Assembly: GCA_046154225.1 (NCBI GenBank) | Contig: JBJXEM010000013.1 | Span: 27,388 to 91,387, forward strand | Source of the DNA: Rickettsiales bacterium | GTDB taxonomy: Bacteria; Pseudomonadota; Alphaproteobacteria; Rickettsiales; UBA3002 | Length of the DNA stretch: 64,000 nucleotides | Reading direction: 5' to 3' | Shown: in pieces, positions 18,161-49,769 of the stretch | How the letters are laid out: each line of letters opens with the position of its first letter | How positions within the stretch are numbered: the first letter of the stretch is position 1 | Program-made: the position numbers and the translations under genes | Notes under the pieces: generated by a model | What the model was told of the DNA's origin: nothing | Databases searched by the model: none | What the model saw: the letters and a program-made list of their open reading frames with translations, nothing else

Positions 18161-18194
18161 CCCGTGATAGGGGTCGCCCCTATCACGGGTTTTT
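18161..18194 (+). terminator. Intrinsic terminator with U-tract on the + strand
   Basis: Perfect 13-bp stem CCCGTGATAGGGG-TCG-CCCCTATCACGGG followed by TTTTT. Confidence 0.75.
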
Positions 18195-18217: not shown

Positions 18218-18856
18218 TTACTGGTAGGCCCACCAGTTGCTCTCGTTAATGGCGTAAATCGGGCGATAGCGCGTGGTGTGGTTTTCGGCTACAATCTTCT
18301 GGGTTTGGTTGTCTAGCAGGTAGCGCGTGTCGTCGTTGGTTAGTTCCAGCACCGCATGCATTTCGCCACCCCGGTTCATGTCGCGCACGATCATGATCCG
18401 CATGTCGTCGGCACTCACGCCGAGGCGCTGCAATGTGAGGTATTTCGCAATCGCATAATCTTCGCAATCACCGCCGCGCGCCATGGTTTCATAGGGGGTC
18501 TGCCAGAAATCGACGATGCCCCAATTCGCTTCGTCGGTAATGTAAGGCACCGCGTTGAAAAACGCATTTACGGCTTTCATTTGCTCGTCGACCGGCTTGC
18601 CATCGAGGTCGCTGATGAGTTTTTCCCATTTCACGTTGGTACAGCTTTCATCGGTGCATTCTTCGTCGACCGACGCTTTTTGTTCCTCGTAGCGCGGCAG
18701 AATGGCCGTCCATTTGGTGAAGGCCGAAAGATCGTCGGATTCGGTTTGCTGGCCGCCAAAGAACGCACTGCCTGCAGCCTGAGCTGGGTTGTGTACCACC
18801 AGCAGCAGCAAGGCGGCGGTGGCGGCAAGGTGGCGAACTGTTTTTCTCTCGATCAT
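18218..18856 (-). CDS. lapG: Periplasmic transglutaminase-like cysteine protease (BTLCP/peptidase C93, LapG-like)
   Basis: Signal peptide; VNAFFN, D-NWG-DFWQTPYE, GDCEDYAIAKY (Cys), HAVL (His), LDN (Asp). Confidence 0.9.
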   Translation of the reverse strand: MIERKTVRHLAATAALLLLVVHNPAQAAGSAFFGGQQTESDDLSAFTKWTAILPRYEEQKASVDEECTDESCTNVKWEKLISDLDGKPVDEQMKAVNAFFNAVPYITDEANWGIVDFWQTPYETMARGGDCEDYAIAKYLTLQRLGVSADDMRIMIVRDMNRGGEMHAVLELTNDDTRYLLDNQTQKIVAENHTTRYRPIYAINESNWWAYQ

Positions 18857-19030
18857 TAAGTTAATGATACGAGGAGAATATTGCCTAAACGTTAACGATG
18901 GTTACGAGGTTTCCGCACCACTGGAAACCATTTAACCTTATGATTTAACTTATTTAATAAGGTATTTTAACGGTCATAATTTAAGCAATTTACTTAAAAT
19001 GCTACCATAAAAATGAAGGTTAAGCCCTTA

Positions 19031-19825
19031 CTACGAGGCATTCGCCGGTGTCAGGTCGGCGAGGCGCTTCCAGTTCGAGGTCGAGGCCAGCGCCAGATAA
19101 ATGAACGGCAGCCAGCCTTTGCTGCGGAACTCGTTAAAAACAGACTCGGGCAGCGCATTGAACGCCGCTTCGTCGATCATCTGGAAGCCGCTGAGCTGTA
19201 GTTGACGGCCACTGGGCGCATTAAACGCGGTCTGGTAAGGCGATAGCAGCGCGTGCGCCACTAAATCCGCACAAAAATTCTGGGTCATGCGGCGGTGCTG
19301 GTAATATTGCGTGCAGAATTGCAAAGCGTGGTTGGCAAGCTCGGTCGGTTTGCCTTCTGCGTCGTACAGCGGCTGGCCGCCCTCTGCTGGACCCTCGCTG
19401 TACTGCACGGCAGCTTCGTCAACACAAAGGTAGAATTTATCGTCCCCCGCCTGCTCCATGAAGATAAACGGGTATTGGCGCGCATAGGCGGGCACATAAT
19501 CGCCCGTGCGCCACTGACCAGCGCCATCGACCATCAGGTTGCGCTGCTCGAGTCCCAGCACGGCGACAGGCACCGGCTCCGCGCCCACCGAGAACACGAT
19601 GGGATAGGATTTCACCGCCTCGATAAACTCGATGGCATTGAGCGGCACCGAGTTCGCGTCGCGCGTAAAACGGTAATCGACCGCCGGCAGAATAGTAGCG
19701 GCAGCATGGCGCACGCGGTCGAGCAGCCGGGGCTCACGGAAATACAGCGGCAATTCCGAAGCTGCTTGGTTCACTTGCGCCGTTGCTTGTGCTTCGGCTT
19801 TAGCGCTCTTCTCACGTTTTGCCAT
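19031..19825 (-). CDS. sapC: SapC family protein
   Basis: EF-EA-YPIVF, PVAVLGL, NL-VD-GQW, YVPAY-RQYPF, GF-IDE-F-LP, SxxNW. Confidence 0.88.
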   Translation of the reverse strand: MAKREKSAKAEAQATAQVNQAASELPLYFREPRLLDRVRHAAATILPAVDYRFTRDANSVPLNAIEFIEAVKSYPIVFSVGAEPVPVAVLGLEQRNLMVDGAGQWRTGDYVPAYARQYPFIFMEQAGDDKFYLCVDEAAVQYSEGPAEGGQPLYDAEGKPTELANHALQFCTQYYQHRRMTQNFCADLVAHALLSPYQTAFNAPSGRQLQLSGFQMIDEAAFNALPESVFNEFRSKGWLPFIYLALASTSNWKRLADLTPANAS

Positions 19826-19830
19826 GGCTA

Positions 19831-22800
19831 CTACTGCGCGCCGCAGCTGAAGCCCTGGGCGAAGCCGGTGCCGAGGAAGCTGTTACCGCAGCTGCCGCCC
19901 ACCGTGTTGCTCACCACTTTCTGACCCTCAGGCCCACCCGAAGCGGGACTCAGGTTCGCCAGTGCCTTCGCATCGACCGGCCCACCGGCGGCGGGCGCGA
20001 GGGTCGCGAAGAAGTTAGCAACTTGGGTGGGCGTCGTAATCGGTGCCGAATTGCTGAGCAGGCTCAGGTCAATCGTGTTGACGTTCAGCGATACCGGTTT
20101 CGCTTCGACGTTGGCCGAAAGGGTGCGGCCCGCGTAAGAGAACAGCCCCTGACGAATCAGGCCACGGCGATTACGCTGGAAATCGTTCAGCGCGTTCTGG
20201 TTGGTGTCAATGAAGTCAGCGTAGAAGACGTCGCCGAGGGTCAGGTCGTCACCCACGTCGATCGTTTTGTTTTCCGCGGCGATCAATTGTAGCGGTGTGA
20301 AATCACGCGCCCGCGTGCCATCAAAGGTCTGACCGCTGGCATCCAGCGTCTGGCCTACCATGGCACCGTTCTGCAGCACAAAATAGAACCCAACGTTGCT
20401 GAAGCTGCTGTCTTCACCTAGGAATTGCAGGCTGCTGCCGGGGATAATTTCCGGCTGCAGTTGCAGCGCTACTTCTTGCCCGTCTTGAAGGACTTGTGCC
20501 TCCAGCGGAATCCGGCTGAACACTGCCCCATCGATCAGTATCGCAATGTCACCGCCGCTGAAGCTGGTATTTTCGACCAGCGTGTTCGCCGACCCGTTGA
20601 ACAGCTCCAGGCCAATCCCGTTTGCCGCGTTCGTGGTGAAGGTTTCGTCCGAGAGCAACACGTTGCTGCTGCCGTTCAAATCCACCCCGATCAGGTTGTT
20701 GCTGAACAGGTTGTTGCGCAGCACGGCGGCGTTGCTACCGCTCAGCAATGCACCGGTTCCGCCATCGCGAAAGAAGTTGCCGTTCACTGCTAGAAGGCTG
20801 TCGCCCTGGCTGTCAAGCCCGGTGGTGTTGCGCTCTACAATGTTGCCAGTCAGCGTACTGCCCGACGTCGCCGACAGAGAAATGCCCGTGTCGTTGTCGT
20901 TGATCGTGTTGGTACCGGCATTCAGCCCGCTACCGCCCAGCACCAGCAACCCCGTGTCGGTATTGTTCGAGAAATTGTTGCTGGTAAGGGTTGCATTGTT
21001 GCTGAAATTAAGCGCCGCACCCGTCACGTTATTGGTCGCGGTGTTGCGCGTGCCCGTGAAGCCCGACGATTGCTGCACCACTAAACCGGTGCCATTGAAG
21101 GTGAGGGTGTTGCCGGTTGCCGAAGCCCCATTGCTGCCACTCACACGCACACCGGCGCCCGTTGCCTGACTGGCGAAATTGTTGCTGATAACTGCGTTAT
21201 CCGAAGCGTTGACCAGTATGCCATCGCCTTTGATGTTGCCAACGTCGCCTGCGGTGCCCGTTTTATTGGTGAAGCCAACATAGTTGCCATTCACCATCAC
21301 GCTTGGGCTACCGGCGATATCGATACCGTTCGCACCGGTGTTATAAACCACGTTGTTCGACACGGTGAGGCCACCCGTGCCGCGGGTGATGATGCCCGCA
21401 TTCGTGGTGTTGTGAATGATGTTGTCATCAATCAGGTTGGTGCCGCCCGCGTTAGTGACGCTGATGCCGTTCTTATTGCTCGAATTCACCATATTTTTGC
21501 TGATGGTGAGGTCTGAGCCGTTGTCGGATTCAATCGCGCCTACCGCATCGGTGGCCACCTTGCTGAGCGTATTATTCAATACCGAAGCGGTGCTCACACC
21601 ACCTAGGTAAATCCCAGCGCGCTGCACGCCATCCACCGTATTATTTTGCACGGTGATGCGGCTGCCGCCACTGAGCTTGATGCCATCCCATGCAATGTCG
21701 CTCACGCTGTTGCCATCGGCCGCAGTGGTGCTGCCAATGGTCACATCGTCGCTGCCCGAGACAAAGATACCGCTGCCCACATCAAAACTGTTGGCTGGAG
21801 CCGTGGTACGCGTGACCTTGTTGCCTTTAATGGTAGCGCCGTTCGACGCGTCGATACGGATACCATCGCCGTTGATGTTGTTCACATCGCCTGGGGTGCC
21901 CGTTTTATTGGTGAAGCCAACATAGTTGCCATTCACCATCACGCTTGTGCTACCCGAAATGTCGATACCGTTCGCACCGGCGTTATAAACCACGTTGTTC
22001 GACACCGTGAGGCCCGTGCTGGTGCGCGCGACAATGCCGCGGCCCGTCGTGTCATGCACCGTATTGTCATCCACCAGGTTCGTGCCCGTTGCACCAATCA
22101 GGCTGATGCCATCACGGCCCGCTTTGTTGACCTTGTTACCAGTTACTTCAAAGTTATTGCTGTCCTTAATCCAGATGCCATCACGCGTCGCGGTGATCGT
22201 ATTATCGGTTACCGTGAAGTTTGGTTTTACCTTAGCGAGCGCTTTAACGAAGGTCGCAACCTTCTCGAACACGCCTGCATCACGGATATGCACGCCATCG
22301 CGGCCTGCACGGGTGATATCGTTCTCATCAATCGAGAAATCATTCGCGTTGCGCACATTCACACCATCGCGGTCGGCGGCGATGTCGTTGTCCGTCACGC
22401 TGAAATCATTGGAATTGGCGATGTTGATGCCATCGCGGCCCTTGGGCGCTTCAACAACAGCTACACCGATATCAATATCGTTGTTGATGATTTTGAAATC
22501 ATTCGCGTCACGCACATGCACGCCGTCGCGGCTAGCATAGATGTCGTTCTTGCGTATACGGAAATCGCTCGCATCCTTGATGTTCACGCCATCGCGGCTG
22601 GCTGTGATGTCGTTGCGGCGCACCGCGAAATCCGTGATACCATCGATATTCACGCCGTCACGATCCACATTGTTGATGGTGTTGCGCTTGATGGTCAGTT
22701 TGCCAGTGAGTTTCATCCCATCGGTCATCGTCTCATCAACAGGCATCACCTCGAGCAATACAGGCCCATCAGAAATTTCAGAATCACCCAGCGTTAATTC

Positions 22801-25800
22801 AATCCCATCAGAATTAGCAGGCTCATCGGTCGATGTAGGTTCATCAACCGCCTTGCGTGCTGGACGCACATGGATACCATCGCGACCCGCATTGCGAATA
22901 TCGTTGAACGAGATTTCCGATTCACCCAGCACTGTTTCAATAATACCAAAGCCGGACTCAATCTGATTGCCATTACCATCAAGGATAACAATTTCTCCGA
23001 AAATCGGCGTTTGCGTCACCGTCAAATCACGCACGTTGATGCCGTCACTATCCACGTTGCGGATCGTGTTTTCGGTGATCAGCGTGTTTTGCGAGCCTTC
23101 GAGATGGATCCCGTCGCGGCCGCTGGTGGAAATTACAGCGAGCGGACGCTGGTAGTCATTACCTTTAACGAGCTCATCGGGCTGCGGTTTAACAGTTGCC
23201 TCGTTGATGCGGTTGTTGGCAATGATGGTTTGGTTGAAACCAATCTTCGGCTCGTCCACCAGCAACGATTCGCTCAGAAGGTTTAACGGCACGCCATCGC
23301 CCTCATCAGGCGCTGCGACGATGAAATCAACCGGGCGGAAGCTGTTGGTGACATAGAGATTACTGCCGAAAATACCGTCGCGGCCCGTGTCGTTGATGGT
23401 GTTATCGACGACGTAGGTATTTGCAACGTTTTCGATATGAATACCGTCGCGTTTCACATCGCTAATGCTGTTGCCCGAGATAATGGATTGGTTGCTGCCA
23501 ACGAAGATTGGGCCTGCGATAACGAATGCATCGCCGTCTAAAACGCTATCCCACATCGACGACAAAACCGTGAGGTTGACGGCGTGAATACCATCACGGC
23601 CCGCATCGCTGATGCTGTTGTTGGTAACGCGTGCGTTATTCACCGTATCAAGGTTGATACCATCCTTATCGGTTTTGCTAACGTCGTTGTTCGACACCAG
23701 CGTACTGCCACCTTCGAACGTCGTAAGGTTCTGGCCATAGATGCCATTACCATCGACATTCTTCACGGTGTTGCCAGCGTTTGCGTTCTCTCCACCGATG
23801 GTGACGTTGCTGCTACCCGTGACATGGATACCATCTTGCATGACGCGGCGTACATTGTTGCCACTGATGGTATTTTCACCTGTAGCTGCATTGATTCGGA
23901 TGCCGTGGCCGTTCGTTTTGCCTTTGATACCCTTGTTGATGGTATTGCCCGAAATGGTGATGTTCGCACCGTTATCGGTCGAGATCGCGCCGTAATCATT
24001 CAGCGCAATGTTCGCATTCGCCACATCGTTGTCGGATACGGTCAAGCCGCTCACGCCACCCGCATAGATACCCACACGTTGCGTGCCATCGACCGAGTTA
24101 TTCTGCACGGTGACACGGTCGCCTTCGCTGAGCTTGATGCCATCCCAGGCGATGTCGCTGAGGCTGTTACCATCGGTCGCTTTTTCGCCACCGATGGTGA
24201 CATCATCGCTGTTGATGACGAAAATACCGCTGCCGACATCAAACGTGTTGGCGGGAGCCGTGGTGCGGGTAACATCGTTCCCTTTAATCACTACATTGTT
24301 CGATGCATCGACACGAATGCCGTCGCCGTTGATGTTATTCGCGAGCCCTTTGTCACCCAGCTTGTTGATGAAGCCGATAACGTTATTGGCAAGGGTCGTG
24401 TAGGCGCTTTTCGCCACATCAATCGCGTTGCTGCCGGTGTTGTAAACCACGTTCCCATTCACTTTGCTGCGGTCGCCCTGCTCGCCGCCGCTGCTGGTAA
24501 GCGTAATGCCTTTACCGGTCACATCATGCACAATGTTGTTTTTCACCGTCACGCTGGCTGAATCGAGAATCGCGATACCCGTCAGGCCGCTGCTGATGGT
24601 GTTACCGCTGACCACTGCATGTGGGCTTGGGTCAACAAAAACACCCACGTTGCCAAAGTAAGAAACCGTATTCGTGTTAATTTGCGCCGACGCCGAGTCA
24701 AGAATGGCAATGCCATCATGCGTAATCTTGCCACCATCGGTGCCGACTTTGTTGTTCGATACCGTCAAACCTTCAACATTGGCGGCATGTACGCCATCCA
24801 CTGACGTGAAATCAACGCTGTTGCCGTCAACGAGGTTCGTGCCGGTAGCATTGCGAATCAAGATACCGTTCGCGCGACTGTTATCGATGTCGTTACGAAG
24901 CACGCTGATGTTGCTGCCACCATCGATTGATATCGCACCCCAAATGTCGAAGCTGCTGTTGTTCAGGCTGTTATCGGCGAAGGTGGCCGTTGCGTTGTTG
25001 CCGGAATAAATACCGTTGAGGGCGATGTTGTCGATGCTGTTGTTTTGCACGGTGAGGTTCGAATTATCCTGCGTACGAATGCCATCCCAACCTGCGTTGG
25101 TGATGGTATTGCCGTCCTTGGCTTTGTCGCCACCGATGGTCACGCCGTCGCTGTTAAGCACTTGAATGCCGCTGCCGTTCGGGTAACCGGTGCTGCTGGT
25201 TTCGGTGATGGTGTTGCGCGCAATCACTGCGTTGTCGCTGTTATCGACAAAAATGCCATCGCCCTTGATGTTATCGTTCGGCGACGAGAGCAGATTGCGC
25301 TTCAGGAAGCCAATGATGTTTTTCTTGATAGACGCACCGTTGCTGTTCACCACCGAAATGCCATTGGCACCCGTGTTGCGCACGAGGTTGTCGGTGACTT
25401 CAAGGCCGCTCGCATTATCGACGCGAATGCCGTTGCTGGCCGTGTTACCGACTTTGTTGTCGTCAATCACGTTCACGCCACCTGCATTATTCATGCTGAT
25501 GCCGTTTGCGTTGCTCGATTTCACATCGTTGCCGCGAATGGTGAGGTTCGAGCCATTGTCGGATTCAATCGCGCCCACGGCATTCGTTGCCACGTTGCTG
25601 AGCGTGTTACCGAGCACCGAAGCGGTGTTCACACCGCCGAGGTAAATACCCGCACGGGTCACGCCATCCAGTGTGTTGTTCTGCACCGTGGCATTGCTGC
25701 CGCCGCTGAACTTAATCCCGTCCCACGCAATGTCGCTGATTGTGTTGACATCGAATTTACCAATACCACCCACGGTTACATCATCACTGCCGCTGACAAA

Positions 25801-28800
25801 AATACCGCTGCCGATATCAAAGCCGGTCGAGGCGGTGCGGGTGATGGTATTACCGAGAATGTTAGCGTTATTGCTGCCAGCCACGCGGATGCCATCGCCT
25901 TTGATGTTGCCTGCAGTGCCTGCAACAAGCGCGCCATTGCTATCAAAGCCAGCGTAACCAATGTTGTTGGAATTAATGTTGGTGAAGGCGCTGTTGTTCA
26001 CATCAATCGCGTTGCCGTTCGCATTGTAAATTAGGTTGCCAGAAACGCTGCTGCGGGTGGCATTATCCGTACCGCCGCTGCCATCCAGCATGATGCCGAT
26101 GCCCGCACCGCTGATGGTATTGTTGCTGACCGTCGCATTCGATGCGTCATAAAGCGCAATGCCGTACTCGAGCGCACCGGTAATGGTGTTGGCATTGATC
26201 AATGCGCCGGTGCTGCTGTCGGCCACTACACCATCCAGCGAGCCCGTGATGCTGTTGTTATGAATGTTGACGCCATTGCTGAGATACGCGTTCACGCCCG
26301 CATCGACGCCAGTGCCGGTGATGGTGTTATTGCTCACTTCCACGCCGTCGCCTGCCTGGAAGAGCAGGATGTTCGCGGCCTGTACGCTTAGCGGCGTATA
26401 GCCAAATCCGCTGAGGGTGTTGTGATCAATCACGCCTTTGGTGCCCGATAGGAACACAATGCCATTCTGCGCAATGAAGTCGATCGCGCCGAGGCCGGTG
26501 ATGGTGTTGTCATGCACATTTGCGGTAATCGTGCCCGTGGCCGAACTGGTCAGGAAAATGCCGTTTTTCTGGAAGTTGTTCACGTTGTTATCATGGATGT
26601 TCAGCGTGAAGTTGCCTGCATCGGCAAGGCTGTAAATACCATAACCCGCTTGCGAACCATTCGCCGGGTTGTTTTGAATGTTGGTAATGGTCAGGCCCGA
26701 CACTTCCCCGCCTGCGTTATGCAGCGCAACGCCCGTAAAACGGTTATTCGCGTCGCCTTTTTTCAGACCGTCGACCGTGAAGTTCGAAAGCGTCACATCC
26801 GTACCGCCATCGACACCAACCACGGCTTTAATGGGATAGCTGCCGGTGAAATTGGTCGCCAGCAGGTCCGGCGCGCTAATGGTAGTATTGGCAGCGCCCG
26901 CACCGGTAAGGGTGAAGTGGCTTTTATTGTTGATGGTTACTTGTTCGTTGAACGTACCCGCACCCACCGTGAGCAGCGCGTGCGCGTAGTTTCCTACCGC
27001 GTCGATCGCCTTCTGGATTTTCCCACCGGCATTCTGGCGCAGCGAAATATCGCCCGTTGCGTTGAGGTTGCCCGTGGTGTTGCTGGCGAACACGCCGCTG
27101 TTATTGATGGTGAGATCACCTGCCGTGGCGGTGATGGTGCTGTTGGTGAGGGTGACGTTCGTTACAGGGTCAATTGTCACCGCGGCACCCGTAATGCTGC
27201 TGCCCGTGAGTGTCACGTCGCTCGGGTCAATATTCACTTTGCCCGTGGTGGTGATGGTGGCGTTGTTGGCCAGAATCACGCCGTTCGTGTCGAATTTAAT
27301 GTCTTTTTTACCTTGGATTTTTACGTCGCTCAGGCTCATCGAATCGGCGTTGAGGGTGATTTTCCCGTTCGCGTTCGCGCCGCCAATGACATTGCTGCCA
27401 GCCAAGGTGAAAATGCCGAAGTTACCCCCCGAAGACGGACCTCCGGCGGTGCCATTCAAGGTGATTTTGCCTTTACCGGTGCTGGTGATGCTGCTGCCGT
27501 TATAAAGCTGCACGCCGTTACCATAGCCCAGCCCTGCACCCGTGATGCCGCCCTTGCCAGTAACTTTAATATCGCCCGAAGCGGTCGTGGCCGAGGCACC
27601 ATCGCCCAGCACTACTCCGTAGCTGCCGTAGCTGCTTGTGTTGCCGCCAATACCATCGAGCGTGATGTCGCCCGAGGTGGTTTCGAGTTTGCCGGTGGTG
27701 CCGGAAATTTGCACGCCGACATTCTGGCCGTTATTGCCGCCTTTACCGTTCGCAACAATGTTGCCCGAGGTGGTTTTTACGCTCGCGTTATGGATGAGAA
27801 TGCCCGCCTGACCTGCACTGCTAGGATTCAAGGGGTCGGCATAGGGGCTGAGCGCCAAGCTGGCGCTTCCTTTCGCGTAACCGTTGCCACCGGTGAGGGT
27901 GATGTTGCCGGCACCCGTGGTGATGGATGCACCGCTTTGCAGCGCGATCGCGCCTGCATTGGCATTATCCGCATCCGAAGTAATGACGACATTGCCCGAA
28001 CCCGAGGTGATGGAGCCAGTGGCCGAAACACCCGCCGTGCCACCGTTGCCGGCCGCACCGCCATTGCCAGGGCGTGCGCCGGTGGCGTTGTTGCCACGCG
28101 TGCCTGCCGCGCCGGCGACACCATTTTTGGTGCTGCCGATAACCACATCGCGGTTAGCATTAAGTGCAATATCACCACTCACGCTTGAAAGCGTGCCCGT
28201 GCCGCCGTTGCCGCCATTACCGCCGTTAGCACCATCGCCACCATTACCGCCAGTGAAGCGGGGCGCTGTGCTTCTGCCATTCGCACCATCGCCGCCGTTG
28301 CCACCATTGCCGCCGTTAGCACCATCGCCGCCGAGGCGCACATCGCTGCCCGCGTTCAAGGTAATTTTGCCCGATTGGGTGCTGACGCTGCCGTTGCCGC
28401 CATTATTGTTGTTGCTGGCATTAGGGAAAGTAGTGCCGTTAACAAAGCCAAGCGCATTCGTGCCGCTCAGACCATTCGCGCCATTCGCGCCATTGCCGCC
28501 CACTTGCACATTGTTGCCCGCAGTGAGGGTCACGTTACCGCCCACACCCGCCGTGGTCGAAGTAATGCTGCTATTCACGATGATATCGTGAATAGCGTTG
28601 AGGATGAGCGAACCCGTGCCGCTCCAGTTGATCGCGCTGAGCACGGTGATGTCACCCGCCTGCCCGCCCGAATTGGATGTCGTCAGCGTGACATCCGTGC
28701 CGGTGTTGAGAATCAGTTCGGATGCGAACGCAAGCACCGCGCCTATCGTAATGTTCGTCGGGTCGAGCAGCAGGTGGCCTTTGGTGCCCGTCGCATCGGT

Positions 28801-30024
28801 CGCATGCAGGTCGGCATAGCCCGAGAAATCAAGCGTATTTTTGCCGGAAACTTCAGCAAATCCGCCATTTTTTCCGGTGCCGAGAATCGTGCCCGAAAAT
28901 TGCGTTGCGTCGTCCGACCACACAATGGCGCGGCCTGCGTCGCCATTTTCGGCACTCACGTTAATCACGCTGTCTGCATCCACCGCCACCGTGTCGGCAC
29001 GGGCCAAATCGCCGCCGCCTTGGTAGTCGCCGCCGATTTTCACTGTGCCGCCTGCGGCTGACCCGCTGGCATCCACGTTGGCCGAAGCCAGCTCAATCGT
29101 TTTGCCGGTGACCGTAATGCTGCCGCCTTTTTTGCCGGCCCCTTTGCCGCTGGCGTTCAGTTTACCCGCCACATGCACGGCGCTGTTTTCACCGCCGAGT
29201 ACGAGCGTGCCGCCATCCATGTGGGCGGTGGTTGCTTCCAGCACACCGGTGTTGTTCACCACGTTGGTGACGATATCTTTCGCCGCGTTGGCGGTGAGTA
29301 AAATGGTGCCTGCTTTCACCGTGCCTGTGTTGCTGACCGATGCGCCATTATCGGCGTTGCCGAGTGCGAAGCTGTAGAGGTTGTCGCCATACATATCGAC
29401 GGTGACGGTCGACGCACCGGCGAGCTGCACCGTGCCGTATTGTGCTTGGATTACGCCATCGTTACGAACGTTCGGAGCAACAAGCGCGACAAGGCCGCCT
29501 TGCGCCGCCGTAATGGTACCGGCGTTGGTGATGCTGGCGTCGGCATTGCCGGGCTTCGTGAAATTCATTTTACCCGCGAGGAAATCCGCACTTTTAATGT
29601 CCGCACTCGAAGCCACCAGGCCCGCCACGTCGATTTGCGACCCGGCACCGAAGACCACACCGTTCGGGTTCACCAGATACAATTTCCCGTTGGCCGACAG
29701 ATTGCCCAGAATCTGCGACGGACGGCCGCCGCCAATGCGGTTCAGCGCCACCGAATTCGCGCTGGGCTGGTTAAAGCGCGTCGACTCGCCGCTCAGAATG
29801 TCAAATCCCTGCCAGTTGATAATGGCTCTGTCGCTACCCTGATTCACCACCAAATTCTGCGCGTTCGGCTGGCTGATGCTGATCGCACCCGATTCCACTT
29901 GCGCGCCCGTTGGCAATGCGTTCGCCGCTCCGAAGGGCATCGCCGCTGCGGCGCCCACAAGGGCCACACGGGTCAGCATCGAAGAATTGCGTAAACGGGT
30001 AACGGTAGCGAATGGGTGACGCAT
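19831..30024 (-). CDS. Giant two-partner-secreted adhesin TpsA1 (3397 aa): TPS domain, Gly/Asn-rich tract, long parallel beta-helix repeats, C-terminal Cys pair
   Basis: Signal peptide, AIINWQGFDI, VALNRI, LVNPNGVVFG, LLDP, many I-x-x-N-x-I...GI repeats. Confidence 0.93.
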   Translation of the reverse strand: MRHPFATVTRLRNSSMLTRVALVGAAAAMPFGAANALPTGAQVESGAISISQPNAQNLVVNQGSDRAIINWQGFDILSGESTRFNQPSANSVALNRIGGGRPSQILGNLSANGKLYLVNPNGVVFGAGSQIDVAGLVASSADIKSADFLAGKMNFTKPGNADASITNAGTITAAQGGLVALVAPNVRNDGVIQAQYGTVQLAGASTVTVDMYGDNLYSFALGNADNGASVSNTGTVKAGTILLTANAAKDIVTNVVNNTGVLEATTAHMDGGTLVLGGENSAVHVAGKLNASGKGAGKKGGSITVTGKTIELASANVDASGSAAGGTVKIGGDYQGGGDLARADTVAVDADSVINVSAENGDAGRAIVWSDDATQFSGTILGTGKNGGFAEVSGKNTLDFSGYADLHATDATGTKGHLLLDPTNITIGAVLAFASELILNTGTDVTLTTSNSGGQAGDITVLSAINWSGTGSLILNAIHDIIVNSSITSTTAGVGGNVTLTAGNNVQVGGNGANGANGLSGTNALGFVNGTTFPNASNNNNGGNGSVSTQSGKITLNAGSDVRLGGDGANGGNGGNGGDGANGRSTAPRFTGGNGGDGANGGNGGNGGTGTLSSVSGDIALNANRDVVIGSTKNGVAGAAGTRGNNATGARPGNGGAAGNGGTAGVSATGSITSGSGNVVITSDADNANAGAIALQSGASITTGAGNITLTGGNGYAKGSASLALSPYADPLNPSSAGQAGILIHNASVKTTSGNIVANGKGGNNGQNVGVQISGTTGKLETTSGDITLDGIGGNTSSYGSYGVVLGDGASATTASGDIKVTGKGGITGAGLGYGNGVQLYNGSSITSTGKGKITLNGTAGGPSSGGNFGIFTLAGSNVIGGANANGKITLNADSMSLSDVKIQGKKDIKFDTNGVILANNATITTTGKVNIDPSDVTLTGSSITGAAVTIDPVTNVTLTNSTITATAGDLTINNSGVFASNTTGNLNATGDISLRQNAGGKIQKAIDAVGNYAHALLTVGAGTFNEQVTINNKSHFTLTGAGAANTTISAPDLLATNFTGSYPIKAVVGVDGGTDVTLSNFTVDGLKKGDANNRFTGVALHNAGGEVSGLTITNIQNNPANGSQAGYGIYSLADAGNFTLNIHDNNVNNFQKNGIFLTSSATGTITANVHDNTITGLGAIDFIAQNGIVFLSGTKGVIDHNTLSGFGYTPLSVQAANILLFQAGDGVEVSNNTITGTGVDAGVNAYLSNGVNIHNNSITGSLDGVVADSSTGALINANTITGALEYGIALYDASNATVSNNTISGAGIGIMLDGSGGTDNATRSSVSGNLIYNANGNAIDVNNSAFTNINSNNIGYAGFDSNGALVAGTAGNIKGDGIRVAGSNNANILGNTITRTASTGFDIGSGIFVSGSDDVTVGGIGKFDVNTISDIAWDGIKFSGGSNATVQNNTLDGVTRAGIYLGGVNTASVLGNTLSNVATNAVGAIESDNGSNLTIRGNDVKSSNANGISMNNAGGVNVIDDNKVGNTASNGIRVDNASGLEVTDNLVRNTGANGISVVNSNGASIKKNIIGFLKRNLLSSPNDNIKGDGIFVDNSDNAVIARNTITETSSTGYPNGSGIQVLNSDGVTIGGDKAKDGNTITNAGWDGIRTQDNSNLTVQNNSIDNIALNGIYSGNNATATFADNSLNNSSFDIWGAISIDGGSNISVLRNDIDNSRANGILIRNATGTNLVDGNSVDFTSVDGVHAANVEGLTVSNNKVGTDGGKITHDGIAILDSASAQINTNTVSYFGNVGVFVDPSPHAVVSGNTISSGLTGIAILDSASVTVKNNIVHDVTGKGITLTSSGGEQGDRSKVNGNVVYNTGSNAIDVAKSAYTTLANNVIGFINKLGDKGLANNINGDGIRVDASNNVVIKGNDVTRTTAPANTFDVGSGIFVINSDDVTIGGEKATDGNSLSDIAWDGIKLSEGDRVTVQNNSVDGTQRVGIYAGGVSGLTVSDNDVANANIALNDYGAISTDNGANITISGNTINKGIKGKTNGHGIRINAATGENTISGNNVRRVMQDGIHVTGSSNVTIGGENANAGNTVKNVDGNGIYGQNLTTFEGGSTLVSNNDVSKTDKDGINLDTVNNARVTNNSISDAGRDGIHAVNLTVLSSMWDSVLDGDAFVIAGPIFVGSNQSIISGNSISDVKRDGIHIENVANTYVVDNTINDTGRDGIFGSNLYVTNSFRPVDFIVAAPDEGDGVPLNLLSESLLVDEPKIGFNQTIIANNRINEATVKPQPDELVKGNDYQRPLAVISTSGRDGIHLEGSQNTLITENTIRNVDSDGINVRDLTVTQTPIFGEIVILDGNGNQIESGFGIIETVLGESEISFNDIRNAGRDGIHVRPARKAVDEPTSTDEPANSDGIELTLGDSEISDGPVLLEVMPVDETMTDGMKLTGKLTIKRNTINNVDRDGVNIDGITDFAVRRNDITASRDGVNIKDASDFRIRKNDIYASRDGVHVRDANDFKIINNDIDIGVAVVEAPKGRDGINIANSNDFSVTDNDIAADRDGVNVRNANDFSIDENDITRAGRDGVHIRDAGVFEKVATFVKALAKVKPNFTVTDNTITATRDGIWIKDSNNFEVTGNKVNKAGRDGISLIGATGTNLVDDNTVHDTTGRGIVARTSTGLTVSNNVVYNAGANGIDISGSTSVMVNGNYVGFTNKTGTPGDVNNINGDGIRIDASNGATIKGNKVTRTTAPANSFDVGSGIFVSGSDDVTIGSTTAADGNSVSDIAWDGIKLSGGSRITVQNNTVDGVQRAGIYLGGVSTASVLNNTLSKVATDAVGAIESDNGSDLTISKNMVNSSNKNGISVTNAGGTNLIDDNIIHNTTNAGIITRGTGGLTVSNNVVYNTGANGIDIAGSPSVMVNGNYVGFTNKTGTAGDVGNIKGDGILVNASDNAVISNNFASQATGAGVRVSGSNGASATGNTLTFNGTGLVVQQSSGFTGTRNTATNNVTGAALNFSNNATLTSNNFSNNTDTGLLVLGGSGLNAGTNTINDNDTGISLSATSGSTLTGNIVERNTTGLDSQGDSLLAVNGNFFRDGGTGALLSGSNAAVLRNNLFSNNLIGVDLNGSSNVLLSDETFTTNAANGIGLELFNGSANTLVENTSFSGGDIAILIDGAVFSRIPLEAQVLQDGQEVALQLQPEIIPGSSLQFLGEDSSFSNVGFYFVLQNGAMVGQTLDASGQTFDGTRARDFTPLQLIAAENKTIDVGDDLTLGDVFYADFIDTNQNALNDFQRNRRGLIRQGLFSYAGRTLSANVEAKPVSLNVNTIDLSLLSNSAPITTPTQVANFFATLAPAAGGPVDAKALANLSPASGGPEGQKVVSNTVGGSCGNSFLGTGFAQGFSCGAQ

Positions 30025-30135
30025 GGGTCGAGCTCCTGTCAGTGAATCGCCGGGCGATTCGTTTTATAATGAGTTTTATGCCGAGTGTTGCAATTATGAT
30101 GCCGAACGCAGGCGGGCAACCTAGCGAGCGCAATA

Positions 30136-30151
30136 GTTAATAACAAGTTAA
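30136..30151 (-). promoter_or_regulatory. CtrA-type binding site upstream of tpsA1
   Basis: Minus strand TTAA-CTTGTTA-TTAAC fits the TTAA-N7-TTAAC consensus. Confidence 0.55.
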
Positions 30152-30270
30152 TTTTTATAACTTGTGTTAAATTTTATGGGAATCCCGTAAATTCTTTATT
30201 TTTCAAAGCATAGGGGAGGCATTAGTCCATTAAATATGTACTAGGCGAGCCCTGCCACCATTAACCAATA

Positions 30271-31968
30271 CTAATAGCGATACTGGACGTTGAAAAACAC
30301 CCGCGGGTCGTTGCCATTGCCACCAAGAGCCGCCACGCTACGGGTCAGCGGCCATGCACCTTCAACCGACGCCGAAACGGCATCGATCAGGTTGACGCGT
30401 GCCCCAACGCCTGCCGAAGAAAGCGATTGCACCGACTGCTCGCTGCCTGCAATGGCACGGATGTTGTACACTTCGCCAATGTCATAAAAACCATACACCT
30501 GATATTGCTTCAGGTAGTTCAGGCCGGGGCTCTGGTTGTATTGCAGCTCGGCACGGCCTGCCGCACCCGAGTCGCCGGTGAGTTCCGCCGTATCGTAGGC
30601 CGAGCCGAATTCTTGTCCGCCCAGGGCAAATTCTTCCGACGCCAGCAACGGCTGGAATGCATACTGGCCCGACGCCGACACTTGCAGCGAGAACGCATCG
30701 TATAACGGTTGCAGGCGCGACACTTTGGCGTTGATTTTGGTATAGCTGCTATCGGCGTTGGCGCGCGAACGCTGCTGACCGGCGGAATCGCCTACGGCAA
30801 TCCCCTGCGAAGCGCTTGCTTCCAGGCGGTTGATCGCCGCCAGCGGGTCGACGAAATCGAAGGTGGAGCCGACCGTAATGGCGCGGGTTTTATCGTAATA
30901 GAGATTCGAGCCCAGCGCGTCGGTATTGACATCGCGCCAGGTGAAGTCGGTGTTCACAAACCAGTTTTGCTGGCGGCTACGAATCAGCGGGTGGCTTGCC
31001 CCGATGCTCAACGCGTAGCTGATGCCATGAATATCAAGCGGCGTGAGCAAATAGCCCGGATGCGTATCGACATAGCTGCCCGAGAAAAAGAGTTTGGTGC
31101 CTTCGTTACCGATTTGCTCTTCGTGGCGAATTTCGCCGTACGCAAATTCATCGGTTTGCAGGATCGAACTGGCGGCACGCAACTGGGTCTGCTCTTCAAG
31201 GCCGAACGCGTTATTCGCAGCCACCGTTGCGCTCAACTGATACGGGCCCAAATAGCGCGTCCCACGATTATCGAACGACGCCGAAGCCGTGATGGGTTTG
31301 CGCGAGATAGTGATAATCACATCCGACGCACCCGTTTGCTCAGCCGCTGGCTGCAACACAGCGCGCGCCTCAACGCCTGGCAGATCTTCCATCAGCAGCA
31401 GATAGCGCTCAAGCGTGGAAGCATTGAGCGGTTTGGCCGCTTGAATTTTATCGGCATAGTTACGCAGCAACGGGCGGCCATTGCCCACATCGCCTTGCAG
31501 TTTCACTTCATTGACAAAACCTTCCACAATGCGGATGGTCACCACACCGCCTTCGGCGCGTTGCGGCGGCACCACGGCGCGGGTGAGAATATAGCCATGG
31601 TTGCGGTAGTAGCTCGTGATGTCAGCGGCGACATCGCCCAAATCGTCGAGCGAGATTTTCTCGCCAATTTTGTTGGCGTATAGCGGCTTCAGTTCTTCTT
31701 CGCCATACACGGTGCCACCCTCGATCTTTACCGCCTTGAGGGTAAATTGCGCAGTGCCCGAAATCGATTTTTTCTCCGCTTTCGGTGCCGAGATAACCGG
31801 CGCACCACCCACACCGGGGCGTAGCGTTTCAATGCGGTTTTGGCGTTCAATCACGTTAGGCAGCGAACTGTTGGGGGGAATGCTTTGCGCCAGGGCAGTG
31901 CTCGCACCCAGTGCTGCAACCAGCGAAAAGCCCGCCAATGCCAAGGATGAATTTTTAATAGTACCCAT
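30271..31968 (-). CDS. ShlB/FhaC/HecB family TpsB outer-membrane translocator
   Basis: Signal peptide, POTRA motif YYRNHGYILTRAVVPPQ, DNRGTRYLG, EEFALGG, GDSG, C-terminal aromatic YRY; alternative TTG start at 31977. Confidence 0.93.
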   Translation of the reverse strand: MGTIKNSSLALAGFSLVAALGASTALAQSIPPNSSLPNVIERQNRIETLRPGVGGAPVISAPKAEKKSISGTAQFTLKAVKIEGGTVYGEEELKPLYANKIGEKISLDDLGDVAADITSYYRNHGYILTRAVVPPQRAEGGVVTIRIVEGFVNEVKLQGDVGNGRPLLRNYADKIQAAKPLNASTLERYLLLMEDLPGVEARAVLQPAAEQTGASDVIITISRKPITASASFDNRGTRYLGPYQLSATVAANNAFGLEEQTQLRAASSILQTDEFAYGEIRHEEQIGNEGTKLFFSGSYVDTHPGYLLTPLDIHGISYALSIGASHPLIRSRQQNWFVNTDFTWRDVNTDALGSNLYYDKTRAITVGSTFDFVDPLAAINRLEASASQGIAVGDSAGQQRSRANADSSYTKINAKVSRLQPLYDAFSLQVSASGQYAFQPLLASEEFALGGQEFGSAYDTAELTGDSGAAGRAELQYNQSPGLNYLKQYQVYGFYDIGEVYNIRAIAGSEQSVQSLSSAGVGARVNLIDAVSASVEGAWPLTRSVAALGGNGNDPRVFFNVQYRY

Positions 31969-32673
31969 GTGTTGCAATCCTGTTTCTGTAGCCTGCCACC
32001 TCTTAACTAGATGCTCTGGCGCTTACCAGAAAAATCGACATCATCGCGCGCATGACATGCGTTTCTTCTCAACACTGTGAAAAGCCCGTGCTCATTTGGC
32101 ATCGCACAGGCAGGGCACCCCACCCCTAAATTGCACAGCAGATGATAATTTGCATGCCCATGACCAAAGTAATGTTCACCGGGGCACTCACCAGACACGG
32201 ACACGCACCAACTTAAGGGGCGTCCATCCGTTAAACCGCAGCACGTCAATAATAAGCGTATTATCTAATATTGCTTTGTTATTTTTAAGTTATAAAATAT
32301 AATATTCGTTCTAGATTGAATTGTAGCGCGGCGATTTAAAAATGCGCAAAAAAATTTTTCATTGCCTTAAAATCAACGGAAAAACTTAAAGTGCTAATGC
32401 ATTAATGCATTACTTAGGCTAATGAATTCCGTTTTCGTAATAATTATTTTAGCGCACCAGAACTCGTGTGATTTGCTGTCAGCATGGAGATTTTTGAATA
32501 TATCAAAAATTCGTACAACTTGTGCTGTGAATACTCCGATGCGCCACCACGCCGCTGTGGCAAGCCGGCATGAAATCATTAAAATGCCGCCTACTTTCGT
32601 ACTTTTTGTGGACTCATTTTTGTGACTTTTCATCAAAAAAATGCTATATTCAGTCATAAAAAGAACGTATTTC

Positions 32674-44666
<11,993 letters not shown>

Positions 44667-44670
<4 letters not shown>

Positions 44671-45383
44671 GCGGCGGCGCTCGATTCGCTACCCACCACA
44701 TCCATGCGGTAGCCAATGCCTGCTTCCGACACGATGGATTTGCCTAAACCCTTTTTCGCCTCAAGCTTTTCGCGCACCTGGCCGACATAGACGCGTAAAT
44801 ACTGCGTGTCCTCGACATGCGCCGCGCCCCACACTTCCTTCAGGATTTGTTTGTGCGTGAGCATGCGCCCGCGATGGATAAGGAAATAGCGCAGCAAATC
44901 ATATTCCTTCGGCGTGAACGCGACTTGATTGCCCTCGATGAACACTTCATGGCGCACTAAATCCATGCGGATGGGGCCGTTCACAATATCGGGCTCGCCC
45001 ACTTCGCGTACGGTGGCTTTGCGCAAACTGGCGTGAATGCGCGCCAGCAACACTTCGGCATTGAACGGCTTGGTGATGTAATCATCGGCACCTAAATTAA
45101 GCGCGGCGGCGACTTCCGCATCGTCCGAGCGCACGGTGAGCACAATAATCGGCACCTGCGTCCATTGCCTAAGCGCGGTGACGACTTCCTTACCGTCCAT
45201 GTCCGGCAGGCCGAGATCGAGCAGAATTAAATCCGGCTTCACCGAAGTCGCCATGCGCAGCGCCTGTTTGCCGCAATCGCTCTCGACGACCTTAAAATCC
45301 ACGGTGTCGAGGAAGATATTCAGCATTTTGCGAATTTCTTCTTCGTCGTCGACCACGAGAATGGTGTTTTTCTTCACGTGCAT
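44667..45383 (-). CDS. kdpE: OmpR-family response regulator, KdpE-like
   Basis: VVDDE, LLDLGLPDMDG, GADDYITKPF, LTHKQILKEVWG, QYLRVYVGQ, GIGYR. Confidence 0.88.
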
Positions 45384-45400
45384 GTTGTTCCCCGCGTCGG

Positions 45401-45472
45401 TTAGAAAAACAGGTTATAAAGGACAATCAACGAGACCGGTACGCCTAATGCCCACAGAAGAACACTTTTCAT
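45401..45472 (-). CDS. Small single-TM peptide MKSVLLWALGVPVSLIVLYNLFF (23 aa), below the ORF track cutoff
   Basis: AAGGAGAG RBS 4 nt before the ATG; almost wholly hydrophobic; ends 17 nt before the kdpE-like ATG. Confidence 0.7.
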   Translation of the reverse strand: MKSVLLWALGVPVSLIVLYNLFF

Positions 45473-45558
45473 AAAACTCTCCTTGCGCCCGGAATTGGGC
45501 TTCTCGCAAAAATTACCCAGCACACCGTAAAGAAACAGCGGGCGGGCATGAGAACATA

Positions 45559-45575
45559 TATAAAAAAACGATAAA
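45559..45575 (-). promoter_or_regulatory. KdpE-type binding site
   Basis: TTTATCGTTTTTTTATA versus the recalled E. coli kdpFABC site TTTATACTTTTTTTACA (14/17). Confidence 0.55.
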
Positions 45576-45583
45576 GACGATGG

Positions 45584-46306
45584 CTACTGCCGTGGGCAGC
45601 GCAGCGTGAACTCGGCCCCGCCTTGTTCGTGATTCACCCCTTCCACCGTGCCGCCGAGTGCCTGCATCATTAACCGGCAGATGGGCAGGCCGAGGCCGGT
45701 GCCCGCGTTTTGATTATCGTTATGGGCGATACGGGTGTATTTCGAGAAAATTGCTTCTTCCTTACCCGCCGGAATACCACGGCCATTATCGCGCACCCGC
45801 ACGTACGCACCGTTCGCGTCGGTGCCGTAATGCACTGCAATCGTCGCTTCACGCCCGGCATGCTTGATGGCGTTGTCGAGCACCAGCCCGACGGCACGGC
45901 CAAACAGCATGAGGTCGGTGGTGATCGGCGCACCCTGCTCGTCACCATGTAACTCAATCGTGTGGCGCTTGGCGCGCGGGCCGAGGCGCGACAGGCAGTC
46001 GTTCAGCAACGATTTCATCACCAGTTTTTCGGGCTTCAGCGTAATCATTCCCGCTTCGAGCTTGCCCATATCGAGAATGTTGGTGATGAAATTATCGAGC
46101 CGATACGCCTCGCCCAGCGCCGAGCGAATGAGGCTCTCTTTTTTCTCGGGCGTCAGTTTTTCGTTCATGCGCTCGTACACTTCGAGCGCGCCGATGATGG
46201 TCGCGAGCGGCGTTTTCAAATCATGCGACACCGCCGACAGCATCTGCCGATGCATCTGCTCGCGCGTCTGCGCGAAGGCGGCAGCATCATCAGGGGGGTT
46301 TTTCAT
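45584..46306 (-). CDS. Sensor-less KdpD-like histidine kinase (HisKA plus HATPase only)
   Basis: SHDLKTPL after only ~26 aa, LDNAIKH, DNGRGI, GTGLGL. Confidence 0.88.
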   Translation of the reverse strand: MKNPPDDAAAFAQTREQMHRQMLSAVSHDLKTPLATIIGALEVYERMNEKLTPEKKESLIRSALGEAYRLDNFITNILDMGKLEAGMITLKPEKLVMKSLLNDCLSRLGPRAKRHTIELHGDEQGAPITTDLMLFGRAVGLVLDNAIKHAGREATIAVHYGTDANGAYVRVRDNGRGIPAGKEEAIFSKYTRIAHNDNQNAGTGLGLPICRLMMQALGGTVEGVNHEQGGAEFTLRCPRQ

Positions 46307-46378
46307 CGCGCTGCCTTTGGCTTTATGGGCTTGGAAAGCCTATGTTAGCATACGCGATATAAAAAAGTGAACCGCAAG

Positions 46379-48922: not shown

Positions 48923-49558
48923 TTATAGGCCTACAAGTGCCGTAATCGAGTACAGCAAGCCGCCTAGAAAAGCCGCAATCACCGTCGCGCTAATGCAGGT
49001 AACTATCAGTCCCGCAATGACAAACACGCCATCTCGTTGCATCAGCCCGATGGCAAACAGGCAGATCGCGAGCGCGGGGAACGCATTGCCAAAAGGGATG
49101 GGCATCACGATCATCAGCGCCAGCACAACACAGATAAGCGCCACCACGCGCTCCATAGGGGTCGCCGTCAACATCATGAGGCGCGGCCGGTTAACCCGCT
49201 CGAGTTTGCACATCCACGGCACCACGCGGCGGCATAACGCCTGCAGCCGTTCGGTTTTGACAGATCGTCTGGCCAACATGCCCGGGAGCCAGGGCGTTTT
49301 CATCCCTAACATCATTTGAAAGGTAACGAATATCAGGGGCACCCCAAGCAAGGCCGAAAGGCCCGGCGCCGGAATGGGAATCAGGTTCGGCAGCGCTAAT
49401 ACCAGCAGCAACATGCCAAAGGCCCGCCCGGATAGCGCACGGGTAAGTTCACCCACCGTTACTTTTGCGCCGGTAAACTGGTCGGACAGCGCCGCCAAAA
49501 TATCCGATATTTTCTCACGATTGCCGCTTTGGTGATTCGCCGCGCGTACCCGTTTCAT
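48923..49558 (-). CDS. exoD: ExoD family membrane protein
   Basis: RAFGMLLLVLALPNLIP, PWLP, RPRL, PIPFGN, RDG. Confidence 0.9.
   Translation of the reverse strand: MKRVRAANHQSGNREKISDILAALSDQFTGAKVTVGELTRALSGRAFGMLLLVLALPNLIPIPAPGLSALLGVPLIFVTFQMMLGMKTPWLPGMLARRSVKTERLQALCRRVVPWMCKLERVNRPRLMMLTATPMERVVALICVVLALMIVMPIPFGNAFPALAICLFAIGLMQRDGVFVIAGLIVTCISATVIAAFLGGLLYSITALVGL

Positions 49559-49692: not shown

Positions 49693-49769
<77 letters not shown>

Follow-up and report, generated by a model that had tools for sequence, protein, structure and literature searches.

How might a giant exoprotein be held at the bacterial surface, and what would let it go? The question is raised by a gene block in a Rickettsiales bacterium (assembly GCA_046154225.1), within a 64,000-nucleotide stretch of contig JBJXEM010000013.1, positions 27,388 to 91,387, here called the window. 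Genes for a two-partner secretion (TPS) transporter (TpsB), an exoprotein (TpsA1), a SapC protein, and a Peptidase_C93 (C93) protease lie there head to tail on the minus strand. Our answer, to which we assign a probability of about 0.6, is a design like that of the adhesin CdrA: TpsA1 would be held by a disulfide plug in the periplasm, and would be released when the cis-encoded C93 protease cuts at tandem sites for a transglutaminase-like bacterial cysteine proteinase (BTLCP). Control of this release would be gone, or protease abundance or calcium would have taken it over.

Of the ways in which cyclic diguanylate (c-di-GMP) signalling controls biofilms, the best understood is the regulated cutting-loose of giant adhesins by proteases. 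To our knowledge, the adhesins released in this way have so far been type I secretion adhesins (the Lap and Dvh systems) and a single two-partner adhesin, CdrA. The principle of release is thus already known from Lap, Dvh, and CdrA; at issue is its form in this locus.

The gene block

All four open reading frames (ORFs) were found on the minus strand where the initial annotation had placed four co-directional genes, with the protease encoded in cis two genes downstream of tpsA1. They and the elements of the TpsA1 tail are as follows.

30271 to 31977, minus strand: tpsB, Omp85-type transporter, 568 amino acids from a TTG start; Pfam ShlB and POTRA_2
19831 to 30024, minus strand: tpsA1, exoprotein of 3397 amino acids with a signal peptide, a TPS domain (TIGR01901), and a long parallel beta-helix passenger (Beta_helix, NosD)
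19031 to 19825, minus strand: sapC, 264 amino acids, full-length PF07277
18218 to 18856, minus strand: protease gene, 212 amino acids; BTLCP of the C93 family (PF06035), predicted periplasmic, LapG/DvhG-like
19834 to 20283, minus strand: conserved tail module, the last 150 residues of TpsA1; FSYAGR...(N/D)LSLL proximal block, two helix-PAAGG units, Cys loop, terminal Gln
19981 to 19995, minus strand: PAAGG, residues 3344-3348; candidate scissile bond A3345-A3346, 52 residues from the C-terminus
19933 to 19947, minus strand: PASGG, residues 3360-3364; the second, degenerate unit
19843 to 19890, minus strand: Cys loop C3379-x14-C3394, a candidate disulfide plug formed by the sole two Cys of TpsA1

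The TpsB reading frame opens at TTG; position 31968, previously given as its end, is the first in-frame ATG. TpsB matches ShlB (E 1.2e-24) and POTRA_2 (E 9.1e-20), and is 48-59% identical to the TpsB proteins of syntenic loci. (A second TpsB, 34% identical, is encoded elsewhere in the genome.) In TpsA1 the TPS domain (E 2.8e-22, residues 69-143) is followed by 16 Beta_helix and 13 NosD stretches.

A conserved tail

TpsA1 ends in ...FFATLAPAAGGPVDAKALANLSPASGGPEGQKVVSNTVGGSCGNSFLGTGFAQGFSCGAQ, directly before the stop codon. The translation contains the motifs first read there, namely PAAGG, PASGG, and C-x14-C, the last within the loop CGNSFLGTGFAQGFSC. The two loop residues are the only cysteines among the 3397 residues, against about 37 expected at the frequency of the genome's ORFs of at least 300 amino acids.

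Seven tails, drawn from the genus and a sister family, can be aligned along 150 residues. Common to them are a proximal block (DDFQ..RRG.FSYAGR ... NLSLL), L-x-PAAGG units (two or three), and the segment CGN[NS]FL..G[YF]..GF.C. Two peptide patterns taken from this alignment and scanned against 185,579 species genomes yielded 18 confirmed loci, the close loci of the text below. All are in metagenome-assembled genomes titled Rickettsiales, Alphaproteobacteria, Azospirillaceae, or Pseudomonadota, and all 18 tails have one to five P[AS][AS]G units and a Cys pair, of spacing 14 or 17, situated two to seven residues from the end.

A profile of the last 150 TpsA1 residues was searched exhaustively against 1.84 billion cluster representatives. 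It found 76 at E <= 0.001 (31 at <= 1e-10), nearly all of them matching at the extreme C-terminus. Within the last 140 residues, 75 of the 76 have P[AS][AS]G; a terminal Cys pair with a spacing of 9-18 is present in 62. The consensus of the unit is [QE][QD]-[LF]-A-[NS]-[LI]-[ASE]-P-[AS]-A-G-G, and the nearly invariant columns among 43 aligned tails are P-A-A-G-G, C, N, F, L, and C. The initial annotation had named a lack of conserved motif and synteny at homologous loci as grounds for giving up its idea; the motif is kept at all 18 close loci and in all but one of the 76 representatives. On these counts, chance does not account for the tail motifs. The tail is spanned by none of the Pfam or NCBIfam models. 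Its relatives, all from metagenomic sources, have generic database names such as "filamentous hemagglutinin family protein" and "NosD domain-containing protein."

How does this tail compare with established substrates? An optimal LapG substrate comprises a poorly conserved targeting helix, a turn, and a scissile Ala-Ala pair in [T/A/P]AAG, and conserved hydrophobic residues ahead of that motif dock on the protease (PMC13090378). Changing PAAG to PRRG abolishes cleavage of FrhA by LapG of Vibrio cholerae (PMC6890996). The tail unit, with its hydrophobic residues at -5 and -2 followed by PAAG, resembles a LapG/DvhG substrate in the form of its sequence. An AlphaFold2 (AF2) model of the tail has low confidence (mean predicted local distance difference test score, pLDDT, 59.5; predicted template modelling score, pTM, 0.22) and was used for the positions of short helices alone. 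It places these at tail residues 85-93 and 105-108, immediately before each motif, a weak hint of a helix-PAAGG form.

The closest known anatomy is that of CdrA, secreted by the CdrA/CdrB system of Pseudomonas aeruginosa and released by LapG under the control of LapD and c-di-GMP. CdrA has 2154 residues; LapG cleaves its TAAG motif at the A2105-A2106 bond, 49 residues short of the C-terminus and upstream of a Cys hook that holds the adhesin in its TpsB (bioRxiv 10.64898/2026.07.13.738186, PMC4694147). Both proteins are TPS adhesins with a beta-rich stalk, a [T/A/P]AAG motif about 50 residues from the C-terminus (52 residues for A3345-A3346), and then a Cys pair; the comparison made is one of anatomy. 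The differences are these: TpsA1 has two tandem helix-PAAGG units (one to five in relatives), whereas CdrA has one TAAG; the protease is encoded in cis, with no LapD found in the genome and a sapC gene after the adhesin gene; and the gene order is tpsB-tpsA rather than cdrA-cdrB.

Two kinds of departure were seen among the tails. Three representatives (P0019, P0025, and P0031) have no cysteines and keep the PAAGG units and an ANSFLGEGY-like segment; by their sequences, they may be variants that a disulfide could not plug. At another locus (L080, G146:C1, 6362-10152), a cluster of DvhD-like, C93, TpsB, and TpsA genes, the tailed TpsA appears split over two adjacent frames of 572 and 693 amino acids, which could be a frameshift or an assembly error.

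The protease

The protease exceeds the PF06035 cut-off of 27 (70.7 bits, E 1.6e-19) and matches LapG structures in the Protein Data Bank (PDB): 4fgo (E 1.9e-21) and 4u65 (E 2.8e-20), the LapG proteins of L. pneumophila and P. fluorescens. The Cys-His-Asp set claimed for it is present as Cys131 (GGDCEDY), His167, and Asp182 (LLDNQ), and all 28 aligned relatives keep it; with this triad intact, the enzyme is a bona fide BTLCP. By eye, the N-terminus, MIERKTVRHLAATAALLLLVVHNPAQA followed by AG, reads as a Sec signal peptide with a hydrophobic core and an AQA/AG junction.

Comparable enzymes are known from LapA/LapG/LapD of P. fluorescens and FrhA/CraA of V. cholerae, in which a calcium-dependent BTLCP cuts the Ala-Ala bond of [T/A/P]AAG between the periplasmic retention element and the pore-spanning segment. 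Those systems differ in secretion route and in the polarity of the adhesin, and their receptor is LapD, a GGDEF-EAL protein.

Tail and protease across the order

The initial annotation had proposed co-occurrence of PAAG-Cys tails, SapC, and C93 proteases as a check. For this, 401 genomes sampled evenly across the order were scored (400 for C93) and cross-tabulated by hand. The tail profile occurs in 51 of the 401 genomes, C93 in 111 of 400, and SapC in 64 of 401. C93 accompanies the tail in 50 of 51 genomes, as against 61 of 349 genomes without a tail; the sole tail genome without it (G082) is 75% complete. All 30 genomes with a tail at E <= 1e-10 have C93. These counts come from relatives that are not independent, and in one family (f18) C93 is nearly universal (39/40). 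The contrast also appears within families: C93 is in 10/10 tail genomes versus 8/30 tail-less genomes of family f1 (the window's genome, G000, counted), and in 5/5 versus 3/13 of family f9.

Physical linkage points the same way. On the same contig and at most 21 kb from the tail, C93 is found in 19 of 51 genomes, representing seven families. At least four arrangements of C93 and a tailed TpsA exist across the order:

TpsB-TpsA-SapC-C93: the window's genus
TpsA-SapC with convergent C93: G034, G173, and G377
C93-TpsB-TpsA-SapC: G185; the distances in G196, G207, and G227 fit
C93 convergent directly on TpsA: G081

Among the 18 close loci, C93 is adjacent at seven (five co-directional after sapC, two convergent), and each of the other 11 genomes has exactly one C93 gene elsewhere.

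Receptors and control

What restrains such a protease? The initial annotation saw no LapD in the window and suggested that control could be new. The first part stands: the LapD_MoxY_N model (PF16448) has no match at E <= 1 in the genome, which is 98.5% complete, although no control genome passed the cut-off and the sensitivity of this search is unproven. The three EAL ORFs of the genome (439, 350, and 455 amino acids) read as having no membrane-spanning or periplasmic part, and so are not LapD-like. The second part is weakened, since relatives pair the protease with a receptor of a type published for Desulfovibrio in 2024-2026.

This receptor-like protein of about 715 amino acids is encoded next to C93 at all ten of the examined loci where the protease gene is unlinked to a tail; also in G005, G022, G004, G030, G034, and G025, and at L041; and also in G146, G081, and G185. 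It has two transmembrane segments (by reading), a weak dCache_1 match, PAS, and HD_5. Its best PDB matches are 9rc0_A (PAS and HD-GYP, E 1e-37) and 9rbz_A (E 3.2e-33), and the next HD-GYP structure follows at 8e-14. The entry titles say "HD domain/sensory box protein" and do not name DvhD. We take the two chains to be fragments of Desulfovibrio DvhD because they are PAS/HD-GYP and HD-GYP fragments, matching the description in PMC13090378. That paper reports that the metal-binding motifs of DvhD are replaced; the HD and HHE metal-binding positions are likewise replaced, in our alignment, in both the receptor-like protein and the PDB chain.

The BTLCP DvhG is governed by DvhD, which responds to c-di-GMP (PMC10990149, PMC13090378). 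The usual control in this family would thus be of the Dvh type, coupled to a type Vb adhesin. Clusters of DvhD-like receptor, C93, TpsB, and tailed TpsA genes, with or without sapC, occur in G185, G146, G081, and G005. The likeness to DvhD/DvhG/DvhA of Desulfovibrio vulgaris (same papers) lies in this pairing of C93 with a dCache-PAS-degenerate HD-GYP protein. The differences are two. Here the adhesin is a type Vb (TPS) protein with a candidate site near its C-terminus, whereas the Dvh adhesin is secreted by a type I system and cut after an N-terminal retention domain; and the window's genome has no receptor. With four receptor homologues as queries, tblastn gave no hit in it at E <= 1e-3, and HD_5 occurs in just one of its proteins, a cytoplasmic GAF-HD-GYP protein. 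The receptor was likewise not found in G018, G009, G007, or G006, and was detected in the positive control, G005.

The window's protease is therefore an orphan encoded in cis, with neither a LapD nor a DvhD-type receptor, and this absence is the unusual point of the window. The genome does have c-di-GMP enzymes, including the product of a GGDEF gene at 49894-50967. One locus of the same genus (L027, G022:C8) has sapC, C93, and DvhD-like receptor genes in a row, with a divergent gene upstream whose translation reads as an acyl-CoA synthetase; no tailed TpsA was found there, and the locus looks like the remnant of a cluster.

A model for release

From the gene content, motifs, conservation, co-occurrence, and linkage observed, we infer the topology, disulfide, cleavage, and regulation of the system, and the role of SapC. 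TpsA1 would be exported by Sec and threaded through TpsB, which would place the beta-helix passenger outside the cell and keep the last 55 or so residues in the periplasm. There the two cysteines would form a disulfide loop too bulky for the pore, tethering the adhesin. Two units separate the pore-spanning segment from the loop. Each consists of a short predicted amphipathic helix and then L-x-PAAGG, and each would be recognised and cut by the C93 protease, an enzyme of the periplasm that probably depends on calcium. A cut between the alanines would take off the plug and free the adhesin. In most relatives, the adjacent inner-membrane receptor of the DvhD type would restrain the protease. In the window's genome, and in one sub-clade within its genus, this receptor appears to have been lost. 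Hence the likely determinant of release here is the amount of protease, whose gene follows an AT-rich spacer of its own, or calcium, and release may be a constitutive maturation. SapC would stay in the cytoplasm, where its synthesis follows directly on that of the TpsA C-terminus.

The tether-and-release idea put forward in the initial annotation fits the anatomy and is backed by the co-occurrence and by repeated linkage across families; cleavage itself enters as a prediction.

Several points weigh against this model. AAG is a short motif, in a tail rich in Ala and Gly. As a switch, a receptor-less protease encoded beside its substrate would be oddly designed: made where its substrate is made, it would release constitutively, so that release would be a maturation step rather than a switch. 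The protease scores 98.4 bits against the NCBIfam LapG equivalog NF045674, short of the cut-off of 320, and is therefore a BTLCP but not a LapG orthologue in the strict sense. C93 is unlinked to the tail in 32 of the 51 tail genomes and is present in the 61 tail-less genomes counted above. Within the genus itself there is a second C93 context, pepA/flagellar, in G003, G017, and as a second copy in G004. And the one studied alphaproteobacterial BTLCP, HvyA, controls capsulation, with a target that is not known (PMC4241560).

The tail-less genomes and the pepA/flagellar context imply other substrates or roles for C93. At these three loci (L029, L031, and L032, in G003, G017, and G004:C90), C93 lies beside a gene whose translation reads as an M17 leucyl aminopeptidase, with flagellar genes near; no tail, SapC, or receptor was found near C93. 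In a quick C93 tree, whose branch order is provisional, the receptor-less copies of G018, G009, G007, and G006 and the pepA-context copies form a supported clade (Shimodaira-Hasegawa-like approximate likelihood ratio test, SH-aLRT, 99), and the window's copy falls outside it with no resolved placement. A further locus (L078, G036:C7) has C93 convergent on a TpsA-TpsB pair of a different type: the 1272-residue TpsA has GFDINGFD repeats at its end and neither PAAG nor a Cys tail. This locus gives no support to a general link between C93 and TPS.

The rival that survives best builds on such cases. C93 might act mainly on another envelope target, as HvyA may (a capsule or surface protein, for instance); its proximity to TPS genes would reflect co-regulation, PAAGG would be a flexible linker before the plug, and release, if any, would be the work of another protease. 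The tail-less genomes with C93, among them G003, G017, and G022 of genus g1, speak for this idea; so does the pair in G036; and HvyA is a published precedent (PMC4241560). HvyA of Caulobacter crescentus is, like the window's putatively periplasmic protease, an alphaproteobacterial BTLCP without LapD; it is periplasmic and regulated by abundance. Its gene, however, belongs to a capsule-export locus, whereas the window's protease has a TPS pair as neighbours, with an explicit candidate site, and no capsule-export genes flank it within the window. Against the idea stand the presence of C93 in all but one of the tail genomes and its linkage to tails in seven families and several gene orders. Moreover, the near-invariant P-A-A-G-G and the conserved amphipathic unit are constrained far more tightly than a linker requires. 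We consider this alternative unlikely.

SapC and the C-terminal glutamine

Is SapC part of the system? The initial annotation had included it, and the close loci agree: sapC directly follows the tail at 18 of 18, all of the beta-helix class, in which the protease gene is adjacent at only seven. In the window, the sapC start lies 5 nucleotides after the tpsA1 stop. Across the order, SapC directly follows the tail in 32 of 51 genomes, and it is present in 40 of the 51 tail genomes versus 24 of the 350 without a tail; none of the 30 genomes with a tail at E <= 1e-10 lacks it. The window's protein matches PF07277 at profile positions 1-220 of 220 (E 6.1e-64; 216.1 bits, cut-off 28.9) and reads as lacking a signal peptide.

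The 11 tail genomes without SapC have weaker tail matches (E 1.6e-9 to 3.9e-4), and in nine of them the match is limited to the PAAGG and Cys-loop part. The six cases inspected are TpsB-TpsA pairs with short TpsA proteins of 454-1265 amino acids. All 11 genomes have C93. C93 thus goes with the cleavage and plug part of the tail, and SapC with its proximal block or with a long beta-helix passenger. SapC is therefore not a general part of the release switch, as these short-TpsA variants do without it; we propose that it is, on this distribution, a dedicated accessory of the long beta-helix class of TpsA. One locus (L052, G318:C13) has two tandem sapC genes after a single tailed TpsA gene.

What SapC does is harder to say. 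Aligned, 22 SapC sequences have 28 invariant columns, with 39-52% identity across the 21 relatives. An AF2 model is of good quality (pLDDT 83.9, pTM 0.77), but Foldseek found no PDB match to it at E <= 0.001, the best Z from VIA-align wide was 2.3, and phmmer against the PDB gave only a chance-level match to a glutathione S-transferase (E 0.0031). A complex predicted for SapC and the TpsA1 tail, run without controls, scored ipSAE 0.00 and 0.01 (mark 0.32), which says nothing either way. A contact-dependent inhibition reading (cdiBAI), with sapC as the immunity gene, was rejected: TpsA1 has no VENN, the tail is conserved, and SapC belongs to a broad family and keeps the identity just given across its relatives.

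HMW1/HMW1B/HMW1C of Haemophilus influenzae offers a comparison, as HMW1 is a TpsA protein anchored by a C-terminal disulfide loop and its operon has a third gene for a cytoplasmic accessory. HMW1C is a glycosyltransferase, whereas for SapC no similar solved fold could be detected. We know of no release of HMW1 by a protease. SapC family genes also lie beside a Campylobacter surface-layer exporter. Their reported neighbours further include TonB receptors, tryptophan halogenases, and JmjC enzymes; the family was predicted to be an uncharacterised enzyme (Iyer and Aravind, PMC2938197).

That prediction, the strict placement behind the tail with its 5-nucleotide gap, the genome counts, and the invariant columns would all suit a second rival, in which the tail is chiefly a SapC-dependent module. 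Cytoplasmic SapC would modify or chaperone the TpsA C-terminal region before export and so decide on anchoring, with the protease secondary. The 11 genomes that lack SapC, however, keep PAAGG, the Cys loop, and C93, and no SapC fold or active site can be recognised. We hold this to be improbable as the main role of the tail; it is in any case compatible with release by C93 and does not exclude it. A bolder proposal, distinctly doubtful in our judgement, makes SapC a "TpsC": an enzyme or chaperone in the cytoplasm, with a fold not represented in the PDB, that would act before export on the C-terminal module of long beta-helix TpsA proteins, decide both plugging and BTLCP cutting, and replace control by a c-di-GMP receptor in receptor-less genomes.

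The tail finishes with Gln in the window (codon 19834-19836), at 17 of 18 close loci, and in 47 of 76 representatives; several tails have runs of Gln at the end. This residue might be an acyl donor if C93, of a transglutaminase-like family for which the HvyA paper names transamidation as a possible activity (PMC4241560), were a transglutaminase that cross-links the tail covalently to a periplasmic amine of peptidoglycan or protein; but the BTLCPs assayed (LapG of P. fluorescens and V. cholerae, and DvhG) are Ala-Ala-directed proteases, the idea leaves the invariant PAAGG unexplained, and a terminal Gln has alternative meanings, such as protection from tail-specific proteases, so that we find it scarcely credible.

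The rest of the window

The genome comprises 2.18 Mb in 64 contigs, with one C93 gene and one sapC gene. Three further features complete the locus:

18857 to 19030, minus strand: AT-rich spacer of 174 nucleotides between sapC and the protease gene, read from the sequence
18161 to 18189: GC-rich hairpin of 13 base pairs just beyond the protease stop, the top terminator-like match; its T-run is on the plus strand side
32641 to 44670, plus strand: tpsA2, a second TpsA of 4009 amino acids, divergent from tpsB; YDG and MBG_2 repeats, Gly-rich domains

The spacer possibly carries a promoter of the protease's own, and the hairpin is a likely end of the gene block. A promoter and terminator scan of the window gave counts near those expected from shuffling, and only this hairpin was used. 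A CtrA-type box, TTAA-N7-TTAA, has its sole match of the 64-kb window in the tpsB-tpsA1 spacer (30137-30151). It was set aside as chance: 0.41 matches are expected, and 33 of 100 shuffles had at least one.

The N-terminus of the tpsA2 product aligns with the TPS domain of TpsA1 (46% identity over 240 residues), and its C-terminus, ...APGSGGFDDEELIRQRRRQLQQAI, has no Cys pair or Cys hook. This protein may likewise be secreted by TpsB and set free unhindered; it lies outside the release design. Beyond tpsA2, at 44667-47968 and 48923-50967, lie genes for a response regulator, an ORF like a fragment of a histidine kinase, a hybrid kinase, ExoD, and a GGDEF diguanylate cyclase; these regulators are possible controls of the adhesin genes.

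Between 70% and 94% of the words sampled from the stretch 18218-21000 were found in four DNA sequencing runs of a single study labelled as a biofilter metagenome. These runs may be the source of the assembly, and hence not independent evidence of habitat; no RNA run was among those listed as containing the stretch.

What the locus adds

Among the papers listed by a literature search, judged by titles and the starts of abstracts, with part of PMC5422565, no LapG-released TPS adhesin besides CdrA was described. The search also returned no work joining SapC with LapG, and nothing relevant on the SapC family or PF07277 under those names. Control of the DvhD type is on record for type I secretion adhesins of Desulfovibrio (PMC10990149, PMC13090378). 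Against the papers searched, four things appear to be new: TPS adhesins that form a family marked by tandem helix-PAAGG units and a Cys loop; the pairing of this family with a receptor of the DvhD rather than the LapD type; receptor-less variants with a protease encoded in cis; and the link to SapC. Published lists of taxa with DvhDG may already include Alphaproteobacteria, which would narrow this claim.

If the model holds, the logic of adhesin release has been built onto a TPS family in an uncultured alphaproteobacterial order, with a receptor of the DvhD type. The order would offer a natural series, with the receptor present or absent and SapC present or absent. Alphaproteobacterial BTLCPs would gain an explicit candidate substrate with a tandem-site design, and the SapC family would be tied to a defined partner. 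Should the "TpsC" proposal prove true, these TpsA proteins would be the first concrete class of substrates for that widespread family.

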